Virus record (IMG/VR): IMGVR_UViG_3300032227_001172
Coordinates: 1 to 64,000 of that record
Origin: a virus
Taxonomy: Duplodnaviria > Caudoviricetes
Length of the DNA: 64,000 nucleotides
Strand: one strand, 5' to 3'
Position numbers and translations under genes: made by a program. Numbering within the stretch: position 1 is the stretch's first letter; every line of letters begins with the position of its first letter. Below, in pieces: positions 744-44,227 of this stretch. The notes below the pieces were generated by a model. The model worked only from the letters and a program-made list of their open reading frames with translations, ran no database searches and was not told where the DNA came from.

Positions 744-1157
744 ATGATATTAGAGATTCTCAATTTGGATAAACTAATTAATTTCAGTAGACGTTTGGTG
801 TTTTTTAATTTTGATGAACAAAATGCAGACGAAAGCGATGCTGATTTTATAGAGAAGGTTAATAATATCAAAGACACAGACAATACTGAATTAGATCTGA
901 TTTTGCCTTTTGATGAATGTAAAGCTATTTTCCAGGAATTAATTAAAAAGAAAATCAATAAAACCACAAAAAGCGTAAAATATTTGATGAAAGAATCAGA
1001 CTATGATAAAATATTAGTAATGCTTAACAATAGAATGGAATCGAATATTGTTAAAGGTTTAGTAAATAAAGGTATAGTTGAAATTGCTTTTGATAGTGAA
1101 AAAAACGATTTTGTATTTTGGATAAAAACTAATAATGAAAAATCAGAAACCGACTGA
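744..1157 (+). CDS. hypothetical protein
   Basis: 137 aa ORF in operon context. Confidence 0.75.
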   Translation: MILEILNLDKLINFSRRLVFFNFDEQNADESDADFIEKVNNIKDTDNTELDLILPFDECKAIFQELIKKKINKTTKSVKYLMKESDYDKILVMLNNRMESNIVKGLVNKGIVEIAFDSEKNDFVFWIKTNNEKSETD

Positions 1158-1518
1158 TATCGAAGCTAGTCTCAAATATATTTGTAATAAATGCGGAGCT
1201 TCTCACTGGCTATTTTTAAGAGAGACTAAAGCAGAAAATTTTAAGATTGTGTGTGAGTGTAATAATATTTTTATAGTATCACAAATTATTTCATTAAACA
1301 TTGAGTATAAAGATACTACTACCACTACTATAGAAAATTCTGAAGATTACGCTTTAGGTCAGTCTATTATCGATACATGTACGAAAACATTGTTGTCTTT
1401 AGGATATAATAAAACAGAAGCGATCACATTAATTAATGAAGCTTATATAAATACAAATACTAAAGATAGTACTACTTTAATTAAGAATATTTTACAAAAA
1501 CAACCAATTGGAGTTTAA
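1135..1518 (+). CDS. Zn-ribbon protein fused to a RuvA C-terminal (domain III)-like helical bundle
   Basis: CNKC...CEC Zn ribbon, T-rich linker, then TLLSLGYNKTEAITLI...STTLIKNILQ resembling RuvA domain III (ALxxLGY...LIRxAL); abuts ruvB. Confidence 0.7.
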   Translation: MKNQKPTDIEASLKYICNKCGASHWLFLRETKAENFKIVCECNNIFIVSQIISLNIEYKDTTTTTIENSEDYALGQSIIDTCTKTLLSLGYNKTEAITLINEAYINTNTKDSTTLIKNILQKQPIGV

Positions 1519-1519
1519 A

Positions 1520-2413
1520 ATGGGAAACATATCTCGTCCAGCTACATTCAATGATATTATTGGTCAAGATGAAGCGGTGCAAAGATTGAGGATAACGACT
1601 AGCGGATGTAAAAAAGACAGTCAGGCTATGCCTCATGTTTTAATAGATGGGCCTCCTGGTCTTGGTAAAACCACTCTTGCTAGTGCCATAGCAAATGAAA
1701 TGGATGTTAATTTATATACAGTTAATGCGGCTAATGTTAGAAGTGCTAAACATTTAATTCCATATTTGATGGGTATGGATGCTAGAGCAGTGCTATTTAT
1801 CGATGAGATCCATAGACTTCCAAAACTTGTAGAAGAATTTCTGTATCCTGTAATGGAAGATTTTAGGGTAGATCTTTTAATAGAGAATAAGCCAGAATCA
1901 ATTGATATTCCAGTGTTTACATTGGTGGGAGCTACTACTAGTGGTGGTAGTTTAAGTCAACCGTTTTATGATCGTTTTACTATTAAAGAACATCTTTCTT
2001 TTTATACCTTAGATGTACTAGCAAAACTAGCCAAGTTAAACGCCGAAAAGGTCGGACTAATGCTTAACGAAGAACAAGCATTGGAAATTGCAAAAAGAAG
2101 TAAGGGAACACCAAGAATTTTAAATGCTAGACTTCAATGGTATAAACATTACACGTCATTTGATACTGCTCAAAAAAATATCGATGATATATTTAATAGT
2201 CAAGGCATTGATCAAAACGGGTTCGACTCTAACGATATTAAATATCTAAATATTCTCAAAAAGAATAGAGGTAATCCTCTGGGTCTAAAGAGTCTATCTG
2301 GAATGACAGGTATTTCTATTGAGACCATAGAAAATAGTATAGAACCATATATGGTAAGAATGGGATATATAGTTAGAACTCAAAGAGGAAGAATTATTGG
2401 AACTATTCCATGA
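1520..2413 (+). CDS. ruvB: Holliday junction branch migration ATPase RuvB
   Basis: RPxxFxDIIGQ, Walker A GPPGLGKTT, Walker B FIDEIH, GATT, DRF Arg finger, GTPR sensor II, C-terminal EPYMVRMGYIVRTQRGR; start moved to ATG 1520 after GGAG. Confidence 0.95.
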   Translation: MGNISRPATFNDIIGQDEAVQRLRITTSGCKKDSQAMPHVLIDGPPGLGKTTLASAIANEMDVNLYTVNAANVRSAKHLIPYLMGMDARAVLFIDEIHRLPKLVEEFLYPVMEDFRVDLLIENKPESIDIPVFTLVGATTSGGSLSQPFYDRFTIKEHLSFYTLDVLAKLAKLNAEKVGLMLNEEQALEIAKRSKGTPRILNARLQWYKHYTSFDTAQKNIDDIFNSQGIDQNGFDSNDIKYLNILKKNRGNPLGLKSLSGMTGISIETIENSIEPYMVRMGYIVRTQRGRIIGTIP

Positions 2414-3020
2414 TACAGTTGTGTGTCTCAACATTCTTAGACATAAATAGCTCTTTAAGGTATTGCTGTTCTGCCGACGGATTATGAAATTGAGAACCTA
2501 TATTACCATTAAATCCAACAAAAGTAAATGAAGATAACGGATATCTTTCTTTCAGATGAATGTATAACCATAGTCCACTGCTTAAAGTTTTTTGTTTAGC
2601 CCAAGGCTTTACATTAAAGTTGAGTTTATGTACTAGATGAAAATGTTCTTGATTAAAAGATAGTCTATATGGATATAGTCTAGTATTATCAATATTTAGT
2701 TCTTTAATTCGATCTAAAAAAACCTGATATGGTTCGTCTTGATCGGGCAAAGCACCGAATTGTTCAAAATCATACTTCTGAAGTAGTGTCAGATCTCTAA
2801 AGATTAATGTTCTTTTTCGTATATTAGATGTATCTGATAATACTCTAAAAAAAATCCATTTCTTTGGAAACTCTATAACACTACTGAAACTCAAAGGTTC
2901 TGCTGTATTCAGTAAAATGTATACCGCATTGTTATAGTCTGGATGATGAAGTAAAAAATTATCTAAATCGCCATACTTATTTTTGAGCCGATTAGCAAAT
3001 ATAAAAAATCTTTGAGCCAT
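2403..3020 (-). CDS. GT29/Maf-like (sialyltransferase-fold) hypothetical protein
   Basis: LSSGLW...FTFVGF...FHNPSAEQQYL resembles the GT29-like S/VS motifs; start moved to ATG 3020. Confidence 0.45.
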   Translation of the reverse strand: MAQRFFIFANRLKNKYGDLDNFLLHHPDYNNAVYILLNTAEPLSFSSVIEFPKKWIFFRVLSDTSNIRKRTLIFRDLTLLQKYDFEQFGALPDQDEPYQVFLDRIKELNIDNTRLYPYRLSFNQEHFHLVHKLNFNVKPWAKQKTLSSGLWLYIHLKERYPLSSFTFVGFNGNIGSQFHNPSAEQQYLKELFMSKNVETHNCIME

Positions 3021-3021
3021 T

Positions 3022-3345
3022 TCATTCACGAATAATATCATCTAATTTTAATTCAGTATAATATATTTCTAGTAGCTGGCAAGGTTCTACGGCTAAGAAT
3101 TTGTGCCATTTTTTAGGTTCTATGGTTATAGAGTCACCGCTATGCAAAAAGATTTCTCTATAATCTTGATTATGTTCCCAGATTTTTACTATTAGAAAAC
3201 CAGATTCTAAAAAAAATAAATTATATTTGAATTCATGAAAGTGTTTGGAACTCATGCCACCTTTCATGATTTCAGCTCTGTAAATTTCTACATTTTTATC
3301 ATTAAAAATTAATGTAGTCTTACCCCAGGCTTTGTCTGTAGTCAT
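3022..3345 (-). CDS. cupin-domain protein (mannose-6-phosphate isomerase type II C-terminal-like)
   Basis: KAWG, SSKHFHEFKYNLF, GDSITIEPKKWHKF, LLEI; start at ATG 3345 after GGAG. Confidence 0.8.
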   Translation of the reverse strand: MTTDKAWGKTTLIFNDKNVEIYRAEIMKGGMSSKHFHEFKYNLFFLESGFLIVKIWEHNQDYREIFLHSGDSITIEPKKWHKFLAVEPCQLLEIYYTELKLDDIIRE

Positions 3346-4105: not shown

Positions 4106-5107
4106 ATGATAGGATTAGACGTAGGTACGAGTTTTATAGTAGCGGCCTCTTATGACAAAGATAATATTGTATTTAAAGATTTTAGAGACGCTTTTTATAT
4201 AATAAAACCGAATACTCCAATAGCAGCAAAAATGGTTGAGAAAGGATTACAAGGAAAGGTATTTATTAAAGATTCAGATGGATCTTTTGTAATACTAGGA
4301 AAAGATGCTATAGAAAAAGCTGTTGAAAGAAATGAAACAGCTAGAAGGCCAATGTATCGTGGGGTTGTTTCTGTAAAAGAAAAAGAGGCAAAAAGAATAT
4401 TAGCTTATATTTTAAAAGAAGTAGTTGGACAAGCTAAAAAAAATAATACTAAATTAGTATTCTGTGTTCCAGCACAACCTGTTGATCAAGAAGATGATGA
4501 TTTTGATGTTGGTTATCATGAAGATGTAGTAAAAACAATTTTATCAGAAGTAGGATATGATGCTAGATCTATTAATGAAGCTGAAGCACTATGCTATGCA
4601 GAATTAGAAGAAACTGATTATACAGGGATTGGGATTAGTTGTGGTGCGGGAATGATGAATGTTTGTGTTATGCTAAATGGTGAGCCAACTGTTGTTTTTA
4701 GTACAACAAAGTCTGGGGATTGGGTAGATCGTATGAGTGCGGTTGCGACAGGAGAACCCGATAGCGTCGTACAGGTTGAGAAGGAGGGCGGTGGATTTAA
4801 AATAGGTGAGCCAAACGACAATCCCGTTTTAAGTGCCGTAGCGTCTTATTACGAGCGTCTGATAGAATATACAGCAAAACAATTGTCTCATGCTCTTTCA
4901 GATCACAAAGCATTACCTAAATTTAAAAATCCTATTAGGATTGTAGTAGCTGGTGGTACGTCACAAGCTAACGGCTATATAGATAAATTACATGAAAAAT
5001 TATTACAATCTAATTTTCCATTAATTATAGAACAAGTCAAGCACGCTTCTGATCCCCTACACTCAGTCGCTAAAGGCTGTTTAATAGCAGCAAATGTTAT
5101 TTCTTAA
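4106..5107 (+). CDS. actin-superfamily ATPase, volactin-like
   Basis: Phosphate-1 IGLDVGT, RRPM, connect-1 INEAEA, phosphate-2 GISCGAGMMNV, GDWVD, adenosine VVAGGTS, connect-2 SVAKG. Confidence 0.9.
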   Translation: MIGLDVGTSFIVAASYDKDNIVFKDFRDAFYIIKPNTPIAAKMVEKGLQGKVFIKDSDGSFVILGKDAIEKAVERNETARRPMYRGVVSVKEKEAKRILAYILKEVVGQAKKNNTKLVFCVPAQPVDQEDDDFDVGYHEDVVKTILSEVGYDARSINEAEALCYAELEETDYTGIGISCGAGMMNVCVMLNGEPTVVFSTTKSGDWVDRMSAVATGEPDSVVQVEKEGGGFKIGEPNDNPVLSAVASYYERLIEYTAKQLSHALSDHKALPKFKNPIRIVVAGGTSQANGYIDKLHEKLLQSNFPLIIEQVKHASDPLHSVAKGCLIAANVIS

Positions 5108-5116
5108 ACGATAGGG

Positions 5117-5122
5117 GTGTAT
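5117..5122 (+). promoter_or_regulatory. GTGTAT motif (putative phage late promoter)
   Basis: Intergenic copy of the recurrent motif. Confidence 0.55.
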
Positions 5123-5159
5123 ATCTATTCATCGCTTATCTTACTAGAAAATCAAAGAT

Positions 5160-5945
5160 ATGAAATATTTAATTTATTACTATATACTGCTTTTTTACAG
5201 TAGTCTGGTATATGGAGGAACAATCGATCCTAATGCATCAGATGCTGAACATATACAATATGGACAAAAATATATTGCAGTATTACCTATTGCTGGTAAA
5301 TTAATAGATGATCAACATCCCTTTTTTAAAGCATCTTGTGTCGTAATAGATGAATATAATATACTGACAGCAGCACATATAGTGCATAATTCATCAGATC
5401 AATATGTAATTTTTGATAATAAAGAATACCCATGTGCATTAATTGCTAGTCATATAAATTTTGATCATAAAAAATTTGGCCCTGATGATATTGCTTTAGG
5501 TAGATTAAAAAAACCAATTCTTTTAAAGACATATCCAGAACTATATACAGATAAAGATGAATTAGATAAGATTTGTGGAATGGCTGGATATGGTTTTACT
5601 GGTAGTTTTCGTACTGGTTATCAAAATTTTGATCATAAAAAACGTGGAGGATCTAATATCATAGAAATGATTCAAAACGACATGTTGGTTTTTTCAGTAA
5701 ATAAAGGAATTAAGACCCAGTTGGAATTTTTAATTGCTCCAGGAGATAGTGGTGGTGGTTTATTTATTAATCAAAAATTAGCAGGAATACATTCTCATAT
5801 ATATACAACAGATGGAAAAGCTGATTCAAATTATAATGACTCTGCTTGTTGTACTAGAATAAGTAGACATATACAATGGATTCATGATACTAAATCATTT
5901 TTAAAAAAAACTATAGAGGAAAAAAATGTTAAGAAGGGAATGTAA
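5160..5945 (+). CDS. trypsin-like (S1) serine protease, probably exported
   Basis: Triad motifs LTAAH, DDIAL, PGDSGGG; hydrophobic N-terminus. Confidence 0.9.
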   Translation: MKYLIYYYILLFYSSLVYGGTIDPNASDAEHIQYGQKYIAVLPIAGKLIDDQHPFFKASCVVIDEYNILTAAHIVHNSSDQYVIFDNKEYPCALIASHINFDHKKFGPDDIALGRLKKPILLKTYPELYTDKDELDKICGMAGYGFTGSFRTGYQNFDHKKRGGSNIIEMIQNDMLVFSVNKGIKTQLEFLIAPGDSGGGLFINQKLAGIHSHIYTTDGKADSNYNDSACCTRISRHIQWIHDTKSFLKKTIEEKNVKKGM

Positions 5946-6843
5946 GCTATTACCGCATATTCGTCAAGACTTATTTGGTTTAAGTACGCAATCTATGCAG
6001 TTTTTCCCTTGGCCTATTAAAAAATTTGATGTCGAAAAGACATGGTATCTTTCTGAAGGAGAAGATATAACTGTTGGTGTTATAGACACTGGATGTGACC
6101 TTAATCACGAAGACTTAAAAGATAATTTACTTTTAGGTAGAAATTTTGTAGAAAATAATAATGATCCACAGGACCGCAATGGGCATGGTACTCATGTTGC
6201 CGGAACAATTGCTGCTATAAATAATCAATATGGTATGGTTGGAGTAGCTCCAAAAACAAAAATTTTACCAGTAAAAGTTCTAGGAGATGATGGTGGAGGA
6301 TCCAATGCTTCTGTAGCAAATGGAATACTATGGGCAGTTGATAATGGCGCAAAAATTCTTACAATGTCTTTAGGTTCTCCGCATAAATCTAGAAACATAG
6401 AAAGAGCATTGCAATATGCTGTTGATCATAAAGTAACTATATTTTGTGCTGCAGGGAATAGCGGAAATAATGTTGATATAATGTATCCAGCTAAATATCC
6501 TGAAACTATAAGTATTGGAGCAATAGGACAAAATTTATCAGTATCAGATTTTAGTTGTTGCGGAGATAGTCTTGATTTTGTAGCTCCCGGAGAAGATATT
6601 ATCAGCGCAGTTCCCGGCAATAAGTATGCTAAAATGACGGGAACAAGTATGGCAACTCCATATGCTGTTGGATGCGCCTCGTTATTACTATCCCTAAGAA
6701 AAAAACAATTTAATAGCAAGCACCTAGAAGATAAAAATGGATATATCGATGAATTTAAAAAAGTATCAATCCCAATAACTGGTCGATATGCAAACGATAG
6801 GAATTACCAAGGAAATGGTATTATTCTACCTATTACTTCTTAA
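5926..6843 (+). CDS. subtilisin-like (S8) serine protease
   Basis: VIDTG, HGTHVAG, AAGNSG, GTSMATP. Confidence 0.95.
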   Translation: MLRRECKLLPHIRQDLFGLSTQSMQFFPWPIKKFDVEKTWYLSEGEDITVGVIDTGCDLNHEDLKDNLLLGRNFVENNNDPQDRNGHGTHVAGTIAAINNQYGMVGVAPKTKILPVKVLGDDGGGSNASVANGILWAVDNGAKILTMSLGSPHKSRNIERALQYAVDHKVTIFCAAGNSGNNVDIMYPAKYPETISIGAIGQNLSVSDFSCCGDSLDFVAPGEDIISAVPGNKYAKMTGTSMATPYAVGCASLLLSLRKKQFNSKHLEDKNGYIDEFKKVSIPITGRYANDRNYQGNGIILPITS

Positions 6844-18308: not shown

Positions 18309-18349
18309 ATTATTGTAGTCATTACTACTATCTTTAATTGGAGTTTAAA

Positions 18350-18832
18350 ATGGTCAAATCTGGCTATAGAACCACAGAATTCTGGTTTACATTAGTTAGT
18401 TTTATTGTTAGTGGTTTGTTTCTCTTCGGCATTATTACAGATCCTAACGCTAAAGACGAATTAATAGAAGTAGTTTCTCATGCTGTAGAAAGCTGTGTTT
18501 TATTAGGTGGTCAAGCGATGATTTTATATAAGTATATTAATAGTCGTAAAGAACATAAAATTGCTTATGAAAAAACTAAACAAAAAGAAGCAGATCTAAT
18601 AAATAAAGAATTAGAAGATTATGTTGGGGTAGACAATTCGACGAATAAGATTAATATAAATAAAGCTAGTGTTGGCGATCTTATACAATTACCACATGTC
18701 GGACCTGTTATTGCTAAAAACATTGTTAACTATAGAAAAGAACAAAATTTTCAAGATATTACAGATATTCAACAGGTCGATGGCGTAGGTAAAGCAGTTT
18801 TCAAAGATATTAAACAATATATTATGGTGTGA
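18350..18832 (+). CDS. two-TM holin-like domain fused to a ComEA-type helix-hairpin-helix DNA-binding domain
   Basis: KSGYRTTEFW plus 2 hydrophobic helices; KININKAS..LIQLPHVGPVIAKNIVNYR...VDGVGKAVF. Confidence 0.8.
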   Translation: MVKSGYRTTEFWFTLVSFIVSGLFLFGIITDPNAKDELIEVVSHAVESCVLLGGQAMILYKYINSRKEHKIAYEKTKQKEADLINKELEDYVGVDNSTNKININKASVGDLIQLPHVGPVIAKNIVNYRKEQNFQDITDIQQVDGVGKAVFKDIKQYIMV

Positions 18833-42799: not shown

Positions 42800-43202
42800 A
42801 TATATCTCGAAATATTCTAATAATAAAACAGTTTCTGCGGCTCAATATATTACAGAACTAATTTGTGAACGAAAAGCCGCAAAAGATAAAAAAGATCTTC
42901 ATTATAGATTTTGGTTATCTAAAGAATGGTCAATTTTTTTTAGGAATCAAATAGCAACGGCCAATAAGTTAGTAAAGCAGTATCCCGATAAAGCTATCGT
43001 AAATGCTTTGTTAACAGATCAAGGTAAAAAAATTTTTTCGTTGCGAGCACCCCATCTTCCTTCTATCATAGAACAAGAAGAGGCAAAGCTATCTCAGCAA
43101 AATCAAACAATGACTAAGCAGATAGATCGTAAAACAGATATTACATACAGTAAATCTAAATTAAATAAAGGTATAATCTCAAGACTTAAGGAACTAGAAT
43201 AA
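42786..43202 (+). CDS. hypothetical protein
   Basis: 138 aa; TAATG-coupled to recA. Confidence 0.75.
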   Translation: MNPNKYISKYSNNKTVSAAQYITELICERKAAKDKKDLHYRFWLSKEWSIFFRNQIATANKLVKQYPDKAIVNALLTDQGKKIFSLRAPHLPSIIEQEEAKLSQQNQTMTKQIDRKTDITYSKSKLNKGIISRLKELE

Positions 43203-44227
43203 TGTCATTAAAAGAGGACGTAAAGAAAAAATTTGGTGACGAAATCATACGCTCTGCTACAGCAGTTGTGGATAGGGAGTGCGTAGTGATACCTGTTAGC
43301 CCAGCTCTTGATATTGTTTTAAACGGAGGTATTCCAGAAGGAAGTTTTGTTATTTTTACTGGACAACCCAAATGTGGCAAAACAACAACATCACTAGATT
43401 TTGCTGCTACAGCACAAAAAGAAGAATATAAAGGGGATCTAAAGAAACCAAGACATGTGTATTACCTAAATATAGAAGGTAGACTGAAAAAAAGAGATTT
43501 GGAGGGTATACCACATCTTAATTTAGATAGATTCGACATTATAGGTTCTCAACAAGGAAAAATTCTACACGCAGAAGAATATCTACAAATCGCTGAACGC
43601 ATTATTAATGAAGAACCAGGATCAGTTATAATCATAGACTCGTATTCTGCATTGTGTACAGAGGCTGAAATTACCAGCGATATGGATAAAATGCAACGTG
43701 CAGATGGGGCTAAGCTTTTAGCCAAGTTTTGTCGTAAAGTTGCTAATGTAATACCAGTAAATAAAAATATTGTTATAGGCATTACTCATTTAATGGGTAA
43801 TCCAGGTTATGGTAATGTTGAATGGAAAGAAAAGAGTGGACAAGCTATTGCATATCAAACAGACGTTAAACTAAGAGCAAAAATGTTTAGAGCATGGACC
43901 AGTAGTGCGGAAGGTCCGCAGATAGGTCAAGAGGTTGATTGGCAAGTGCTATGTTCTGCTCTTGGTCCTCCGGGTGGTAATATTAAGAGTTTTTTAAGAT
44001 ATGGGGAAGGTATAGACAAAGCTATGGAGCTTATTACTCTATGTATCGATTTAGGTATTATTGGTAAGGGTGGTGCTTGGTATACTCTAACTTCATTAGA
44101 GGATCAACCAAAATTCCAAGGCACTGAAAAATTAAGACAGTACGTTGTTGACAACCCTGAAGTTTATGATAAATTGATGTCTGAGTTGAGTAGTACTATG
44201 GGGTTGTCATGCAAGTCAAAGATCTAG
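43202..44227 (+). CDS. recA: RecA/UvsX-like recombinase
   Basis: LDIVLNGGIPEG, Walker A GQPKCGKTT, IIIDS, YGEGID, GAWY, KFQG. Confidence 0.9.
   Translation: MSLKEDVKKKFGDEIIRSATAVVDRECVVIPVSPALDIVLNGGIPEGSFVIFTGQPKCGKTTTSLDFAATAQKEEYKGDLKKPRHVYYLNIEGRLKKRDLEGIPHLNLDRFDIIGSQQGKILHAEEYLQIAERIINEEPGSVIIIDSYSALCTEAEITSDMDKMQRADGAKLLAKFCRKVANVIPVNKNIVIGITHLMGNPGYGNVEWKEKSGQAIAYQTDVKLRAKMFRAWTSSAEGPQIGQEVDWQVLCSALGPPGGNIKSFLRYGEGIDKAMELITLCIDLGIIGKGGAWYTLTSLEDQPKFQGTEKLRQYVVDNPEVYDKLMSELSSTMGLSCKSKI

Follow-up and report, generated by a model that had tools for sequence, protein, structure and literature searches.

A phage RuvB encoded beside a predicted minimal RuvA-like adaptor that carries a zinc ribbon and a domain III-like tail

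RuvAB is the textbook branch-migration machine, and the tetrameric RuvA platform is considered integral to it. What does a RuvB motor work with when the gene in front of it encodes a likely counterpart of RuvA's docking domain and none of its junction-binding domains? This question is raised by a locus near the start of IMG/VR virus record IMGVR_UViG_3300032227_001172, a 230,691 bp virus genome with direct terminal repeats that is rated 100% complete and whose first 64 kb form the stretch analysed here (the window). An earlier note on this DNA, made from the sequence alone, had described the gene 1 nt upstream of an intact ruvB as encoding a CxxC...CxC zinc ribbon, a Thr-rich linker and a tail resembling RuvA domain III, and had proposed that the junction-recognition module of RuvA had been replaced. 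In silico, the tail proved homologous to RuvA domain III, RuvA domains I and II were absent, RuvB was intact, the gene order was conserved and the tail was predicted to dock on RuvB. From this evidence we put the probability at about 0.62 that the 127-aa protein is a minimal RuvA-like adaptor that anchors and regulates the phage's own RuvB in branch migration or fork remodelling. The two genes at the centre of this analysis are:

1135 to 1518, + strand: mini-RuvA adaptor, 127 aa, with a zinc ribbon, a disordered Thr-rich linker and a predicted RuvA domain III-like three-helix bundle
1520 to 2413, + strand: phage RuvB, 297 aa, an AAA+ motor recognised by its Pfam domains and catalytic motifs

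The adaptor stop codon (TAA, 1516-1518) and the ruvB ATG at 1520 are separated by a gap of 1 nt, and a GGAG lies 7 nt 5' of the ATG. ATG 1520 was taken as the true start and the alternative TTG at 1508 is unlikely, since all 21 phage RuvBs in the alignment keep M1 of the ATG form. The phage RuvB matched the Pfam families RuvB_N (1.9e-47), AAA_lid_4 (3.5e-8) and RuvB_C (2e-20) and was matched by RuvB chains of the PDB at E 1e-63. The Walker A, Walker B, sensor 1, arginine finger and sensor 2 motifs (GPPGLGKTT, DEIHR, GATT, YDRF and GTPRI) were invariant among the 21 phage RuvBs. The RuvB domain set and its catalytic motifs are complete in the phage protein.

The tail of the adaptor was compared with RuvA at the level of single sequences, profiles and structure. 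Pfam gave RuvA_C as the only match to the window's adaptor (residues 84-121, E 1.6e-3), with a score of 19.3 bits that lies under the 24-bit cut-off, and no OB (oligonucleotide/oligosaccharide-binding) fold or HhH (helix-hairpin-helix) family matched the protein. When 146 members of the adaptor family were scanned singly, RuvA_C was matched by 15 (best E 3.5e-6) and every other Pfam family by at most 2. The 146-member family was compared using hhalign with an alignment of 50 bacterial RuvAs taken from genes upstream of ruvB in 80 genome loci. The two aligned with a probability (Prob) of 94.7 and E 6.2e-8, pairing adaptor residues 73-121 with RuvA residues 164-213, which is domain III alone; three unrelated alignments used as controls with the same query gave Prob of 1.3 or less. 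An AlphaFold2 (AF2) model of the adaptor has three helices at residues 76-122 with a predicted local distance difference test score (pLDDT) of about 85. Exhaustive structural comparison with 48,161 PDB representative chains placed RuvA domain III at all of ranks 1-4, with 7pbp_G at the top (Z 6.7, root-mean-square deviation (rmsd) 1.7 A, 48 of 48 residues) and 2ztc_A, 1ixs_A and 1ixr_B at Z 6.2-6.7; unrelated chains started at Z 5.5. Foldseek also ranked RuvA chains 7x7p_A and 1ixs_A first (E about 0.7 with the whole model) and UBA domains next, and a PDB profile search with five sequences reached RuvA domain III at E 0.66 only, beside a chance match to an Ig domain. The C-terminal segment includes LLSLGY..TEA and LIKNIL, where L86, L89, G90, Y91 and L120 fall on two hydrophobic motifs of RuvA domain III, L..LGY and LI..L. 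These positions are conserved in character across the family (L86, Y, F or L at 89, F or Y at 91, L or I at 120), with G90 invariant. Pfam, profile-profile comparison, structure, docking and synteny agree, and together they support the interpretation of the tail as a probable RuvA domain III homologue.

The N-terminal part of the adaptor looks quite different. Four short strands were modelled within residues 12-47 (pLDDT 60-67), followed by a disordered stretch at residues 52-72 that contains the five-Thr run T61-T65. This region has the two Cys knuckles of a zinc ribbon, C17-x2-C20 and C40-x-C42, which would bind one Zn. All 146 family members have C17, C20 and C40, and 99% have C42. P6, Y15, H24, W25 and C42 are each conserved at 90% or more, and the ribbon is the most strongly conserved part of the adaptor. 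Lysine is the majority residue at six positions of the family (61-81%), the zinc-ribbon domain has a median net charge of +4 and the median isoelectric point (pI) is 9.0. The linker is Lys-rich and ranges from 7 to 53 aa in length. A ribbon followed by such a linker would be arranged like a head that binds DNA and is held on a tether.

Canonical RuvA and RuvC were searched for in the complete genome. RuvA_N (PF01330) had no match in the whole genome even at E 10, and the same search found RuvA_N in 10 control genomes. A six-frame search of the genome with a full-length RuvA hidden Markov model (HMM) returned the adaptor open reading frame (ORF) alone, at HMM positions 145-199 with E 5.4e-5. 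The sole HHH_5 match in the genome was an ORF at 18338-18832 (+ strand, 164 aa) with a C-terminal ComEA-type HHH_3 domain (E 1e-15). This ORF was ruled out as a RuvA-like protein; it is ComEA-type, and no other helix-hairpin-helix protein was detected in the genome. RuvC and RusA were absent from the complete genome. In two related virus records of 152 and 178 kb, both rated complete, RuvA_N and RuvC were likewise absent. RuvA domain I (the OB fold, RuvA_N) and domain II (two HhH motifs) were therefore not found, and what was found is a segment like RuvA domain III (RuvA_C, PF07499) on a predicted flexible linker. As two of RuvA's three defining domains are absent, the adaptor falls outside the RuvA family strictly defined.

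The earlier note's description of the gene and its product was borne out by these results, from the position next to an intact ruvB through the ribbon cysteines and the threonine run to the likeness of the tail to domain III and the lack of an OB fold or HhH domain. The junction-recognition domains that it had reported missing were missing from both the protein and the genome. It had said beforehand that a full ruvA elsewhere in the genome would speak against its reading, and none was found with RuvA_N, HHH_5 or the RuvA HMM. The checks that it had proposed pointed the same way: RuvA_C was matched, though below threshold for the window copy, the adaptor-ruvB pair was kept in every relative examined, and a multimer prediction with the phage RuvB placed the tail at the canonical site. 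The proposal that the RuvB handle was kept and the junction-recognition module replaced is supported by the sequence comparisons and models, and the note's further step, that the motor may be loaded on a different substrate, is conjectural.

Docking was predicted using the phage RuvB (alignment of 21) and adaptor residues 70-127 (alignment of 146). The interface score ipSAE was 0.69 in three runs, and the best of 3 controls scored 0.00. Of 80 solved complexes, 58 attained this mark, as did 2 of 110 mismatched pairs. The docking runs shared at least 87% of their contacts and the partner was modelled with pLDDT of 84 or more. The predicted interface places adaptor residues 81-91 (L89, G90 and Y91 among them) and 112-126 (among them L120) on RuvB residues 74-86 and 117-128. 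In bacterial RuvAB, domain III binds RuvB at helix alpha3 and the presensor-1 hairpin (Wald et al., PMC9477746), and at that site it serves as tether, fulcrum and nucleotide-exchange factor (PMC9477746). The site predicted for the phage pair coincides with this canonical alpha3 and presensor-1 hairpin site.

The phage motor was placed in a tree of 21 phage and 79 bacterial RuvBs, a quick tree with long-branch caveats in which the phage RuvBs formed a monophyletic clade that lies outside all of the bacterial ones (Shimodaira-Hasegawa-like approximate likelihood ratio test, SH-aLRT, 100). The stem of this clade measures 3.58 substitutions per site. Identity was 63-99% within the clade and 34-44% to bacteria, compared with a median of 58% among the bacterial proteins themselves. 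The phage RuvB is about 18 N-terminal residues shorter than bacterial RuvB. Of 37 positions that are fixed in the phage clade and differ from the bacterial majority, 8 fall in residues 69-85, which comprise helix alpha3 and its N-terminal flank and overlap the predicted docking face. The presensor-1 beta-hairpin insert is present but resized. Its segment is 24 aa long in 79/79 bacterial RuvBs and 20 aa in 13/21 phage RuvBs, including the window copy, which is thus 4 aa under the bacterial length; in the other 8/21 it is 25-26 aa. A shortened hairpin as a trait common to every phage RuvB was ruled out, as these eight are longer and acidic. At position 82 of the adaptor, one of the predicted contacts, 14/14 short-hairpin loci have Cys and 6/7 long-hairpin loci have Ala, a pattern that represents a single evolutionary event and carries no statistical weight. 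The changes at the docking face suggest that motor and adaptor co-diverged. In the long-hairpin subclade (L019, L023, L026, L040, L041, L046, L048) the hairpin has an acidic tip, KDDEDKDKPE. RuvB matches in named-phage records were 36-41% identical to the phage protein, many of them on short unannotated records and possibly bacterial ruvB.

The size of the adaptor family depended strongly on the search used. A word-based search found only 4 relatives. When 1.84 billion representative proteins were searched with a profile, 368 clusters matched at E of 1e-3 or less and 218 at E of 1e-10 or less. The 150 listed family matches were all 105-184 aa long and aligned full-length. The family comprises at least 218 clusters at 50% identity, and the members with examined context are all in phage contigs. 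No adaptor homologue was found in 50,697 named-phage records by tblastn, no PHROGs family matched the adaptor or its relatives, and a pattern scan of IMG/VR from the single protein gave no match. The IMG/VR relatives were recovered with a pattern from a 15-row alignment; the 146-row alignment was too diverse to yield one.

In these relatives the adaptor and ruvB are the 3' half of a conserved four-gene cassette, which spans 305-2413 in the window. The two upstream genes are:

305 to 724, + strand: up139, 139 aa, first gene of the cassette, with an Asp-rich acidic N-terminus and a conserved C-terminal GLFDILN
744 to 1157, + strand: up137, 137 aa, acidic, sharing 23 nt with the adaptor gene

The order up139, up137, adaptor, RuvB was found in all 42 IMG/VR loci and in 8 other contigs from ENA, JGI and Logan, wherever the DNA reaches and with distant members of the adaptor family included. 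Identity of the relatives to the window copies was 63-79% for RuvB, 31-59% for the adaptor, 32-79% for up137 and 36-53% for up139. In the relatives the adaptor and ruvB genes share 8, 4 or 1 nt or lie 0-3 nt from each other, and the up137 and adaptor genes overlap by 23-62 nt in every locus with both gene ends readable. We also weighed a programmed frameshift that would fuse up137 and the adaptor but did not adopt it: the adaptor is read in frame +1 relative to up137, K5 and P6 are conserved from its own M1, and a search for longer fusion proteins found none, which is weak evidence. The up139 protein is mildly acidic and had no match in the PDB by sequence. The up137 family is strongly acidic (pI about 4.5, net charge -11). 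Its AF2 model is confident (pLDDT 85, predicted template modelling score (pTM) 0.72), with no convincing structural relative (best Z 5.4) and no informative match in a BFVD search. We assign up137 neither a winged helix nor DNA binding: matches to MarR or winged-helix proteins recurred consistently but were weak (Foldseek MarR rows with E of 0.19 or more, template modelling (TM) score about 0.25, rmsd above 10 A), and a pI of 4.5 argues against DNA binding. Neither up137 nor up139 resembles a substitute for the DNA-binding domains of RuvA.

In the mechanism that we propose, the domain III-like tail would dock on RuvB helix alpha3 and the presensor-1 hairpin, and the zinc ribbon on its flexible linker would stand in for RuvA domains I and II as the anchor. 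We infer that the ribbon most likely binds DNA directly, in which case the RuvB hexamer, pulling with the energy of ATP, would move a branch point; what the pair acts on and what the upstream proteins do are inferred as well. Alongside the phage's RecA/UvsX-like recombinase, the pair would act in repair and in recombination-dependent replication of a T4-like jumbo phage, and the two acidic upstream proteins would probably be further subunits or regulators. A more specific form of this mechanism, which we offer only tentatively, is a four-protein machine in which a monomeric zinc-ribbon anchor with a domain III handle would load a private RuvB onto substrates other than a Holliday junction caged by RuvA, for example forks that have stalled or reversed, D-loops or branches in concatemers, with the acidic proteins gating the reaction. 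If this were true, domain III would be a portable RuvB handle that can be joined to new targeting modules in the course of evolution, and the tetrameric RuvA platform would be dispensable for RuvB-driven DNA remodelling in vivo.

Several observations weigh against a DNA-anchored RuvA-like adaptor. The single-sequence RuvA_C score is below the Pfam cut-off. The structural Z-scores, at 6-7, are modest, as is to be expected for a helical domain of 48 residues, and UBA domains match it too. As RuvA-RuvB complexes have already been solved, the docking pass may partly be memory of those structures, and it shows likeness to solved complexes, short of binding. The ribbon was modelled at low pLDDT and its structural neighbours in the structure atlas are generic only, the Zn_ribbon_4 and Zn_ribbon_5 families. 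Unlike the family median, the adaptor of the window lacks a basic character (pI 5.8, net charge -1, about +1 for the ribbon domain as counted from sequence), which weakens the case for DNA binding by this copy. A conserved resolvase was also not identified in the genome searches, RuvC and RusA being absent. The doubts about the tail would be explained if it were a generic UBA-like three-helix bundle, convergent with domain III and unable to bind RuvB, and the sub-threshold Pfam score, the UBA domains among the structural matches and the E of 0.66 in the PDB profile search all fit this. We consider it the least probable of the explanations, however, given the profile-profile match with its clean controls, the top four structural ranks, the adjoining ruvB in every locus examined and docking predicted at the canonical site. 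Only slightly less remote is an anti-host role, in which a free domain III would compete with host RuvA for host RuvB and either inhibit recombination and repair of the host or recruit its motor. Cross-species complementation between RuvA and RuvB in bacteria indicates that domain III is able to bind foreign RuvBs (PMC9477746), and the earlier note had likewise raised capture of host RuvB. This now seems less likely, as the adaptor gene is always translationally coupled to the phage's own ruvB, the adaptor is modelled with confidence on the phage RuvB, and the RuvB docking face has diverged from all 79 sampled bacterial RuvBs, which argues for a private phage pair and against a host target.

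The remaining explanations keep the tail on the phage RuvB and differ in what the ribbon does. The adaptor could be a regulatory cofactor only, its tail modulating nucleotide exchange or ATPase activity of RuvB, its ribbon being structural or oligomerising and playing no part in targeting, and the winged helix of RuvB finding the DNA. Domain III of RuvAB acts by itself on the RuvB nucleotide cycle (PMC9477746), RuvB_C is intact in the phage protein and the ribbon resembles generic ribbons, but a purely structural ribbon would sit poorly with its being the best-conserved part of the adaptor, with the six majority-lysine positions across the family and with a variable, tether-like linker that mimics the RuvA layout of domain II, linker and domain III. 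We regard this explanation as improbable. Somewhat better placed, though still doubtful, is the possibility that the ribbon anchors RuvB to a protein instead of DNA, be it up137 and up139 or a replisome or recombination factor, so that the four products form one complex with the adaptor as the bridge. The invariant four-gene order supports this, and the overlap of the up137 and adaptor genes suggests coupled translation. An acidic up137 that folds confidently would also suit a basic adaptor family as partner, and a window adaptor that is not itself basic is more easily reconciled with a protein target. On the other side, up137 gave no informative fold match, and no fused up137-adaptor proteins were found, which is weak evidence. 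The minimal RuvA-like adaptor acting on the phage's own RuvB is still the reading that we favour.

On the combined sequence and model evidence, the phage pair is best described as a variant of the RuvAB system with RuvA stripped to its docking domain. The comparison was made with the systems of E. coli, S. typhimurium and T. thermophilus (1IXR/1IXS) and with the 7PBL series (PMC9477746). As in bacterial RuvA-RuvB, a genuine RuvB motor has its partner gene immediately 5', the partner ends in what appears to be a domain III-type three-helix bundle on a flexible linker, and docking on alpha3 and the presensor-1 hairpin is predicted. In contrast to bacterial RuvA of about 200 aa, the 127-aa phage partner has a single four-Cys zinc ribbon instead of OB-fold domain I and HhH domain II, and shows no sign of a tetrameric junction platform. 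The phage genome also lacks RuvC, has two extra conserved genes in the operon and encodes a RuvB of a long-branched viral clade of its own, in which the hairpin is resized and the N-terminal 18 residues are missing.

An isolated RuvA domain III fragment, described by Nishino et al. in 2000 (J Mol Biol 298:407, cited in PMC2265524), reportedly binds RuvB and modulates its ATPase. The phage adaptor resembles this fragment in that a RuvB-binding module, predicted as such in the adaptor, stands apart from the junction-binding core; unlike the fragment, which is a laboratory truncation, it is a natural conserved protein with a new N-terminal domain. UvsW of phage T4 and D10 of phage T5 (PMC5180179 for D10) are likewise phage branch-migration motors, and recombination-dependent replication is the role proposed here, but both are superfamily 2 (SF2) helicases that are unrelated to AAA+ RuvB and need no RuvA-like adaptor. 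According to a published generalisation (Iyer et al. 2021, PMC7824862), jumbo phages have RuvC but no RuvB-like ATPase. The present virus is similarly a large phage with its own recombination genes, and its lineage shows the reverse, RuvB without RuvC or RuvA. No description of a RuvB paired with a zinc ribbon and a domain III-only RuvA was found in the literature. New here are the cassette with its two acidic proteins, the size of the adaptor family and the RuvB clade changed at the docking surface. A large natural family that pairs RuvB with a docking domain and a zinc ribbon only would provide a minimal system to separate the roles of RuvA, tethering and nucleotide exchange by domain III versus junction caging by domains I and II, and it raises the question of how an AAA+ motor gets re-targeted. 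It also gives a likely context to three conserved unannotated phage protein families.

The recombination context of the module was examined in the rest of the genome. A RecA/UvsX-type recombinase is encoded at 43202-44227 (+ strand; RecA 67 bits, plus RecA_C) and is flanked by four ORFs of 130-151 aa without a Pfam match. One Endonuclease_7-family gene lies near 212.4-213.0 kb of the record (30.8 bits). It is missing from the equivalent neighbourhood in two relatives and so may be a mobile HNH endonuclease and not the lineage's resolvase. A paralogue of up137 was detected at 211800-212183 of the record (L050:552-935; hhalign Prob 96, E 2.6e-9), between a gene for a 138-aa CxxC..CxxC protein and genes for a weak winged-helix (HTH_39) and an Endonuclease_7-like protein. 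The paralogue's family is conserved (15 homologues), and in relatives it is found near a DNA ligase and an Ogg-HhH glycosylase, without the endonuclease. A duplicated module of zinc ribbon and up137-like protein was considered and rejected, as the CxxC neighbour shows no relationship with the adaptor (Prob 8.7) and relatives do not keep the Endonuclease_7 gene at this place.

The window has a G+C content of about 31%, carries nearly all of its genes on the + strand and contained no tRNA genes in its 64 kb. On a relative's contig an rIIB-like gene lies immediately 5' of the cassette, which fits T4-like biology. The best promoter match 5' of the cassette in the window was:

233 to 260, + strand: candidate sigma-70-like promoter, TTGCCC-16-TATAAT, matching 10/12 positions

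This is a consensus match only, and promoter-like sites in the region were not clearly more numerous than in shuffled sequence. Downstream of the cassette, a convergent 212-aa gene without an assigned function (2403-3041, - strand) shares 11 nt with the 3' end of ruvB. It is kept at the same position in four related loci (L003, L015, L017, L018) at 31-35% identity, and other relatives have a 301-aa minus-strand gene in its place. A volactin-family actin is encoded at 4106-6843 (+ strand; Pfam Volactin, 2.2e-65), and the neighbourhood of RuvB and volactin was found again in relatives L003, L132 and L133. Counterparts of the two ORFs after volactin matched Pfam Trypsin in one related contig (L136) and Peptidase_S8 in another (L003). 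One related complete record (G002, locus L043, 177,880 bp) is a provirus according to IMG/VR, and if this is right its flanks could name the host of the lineage.

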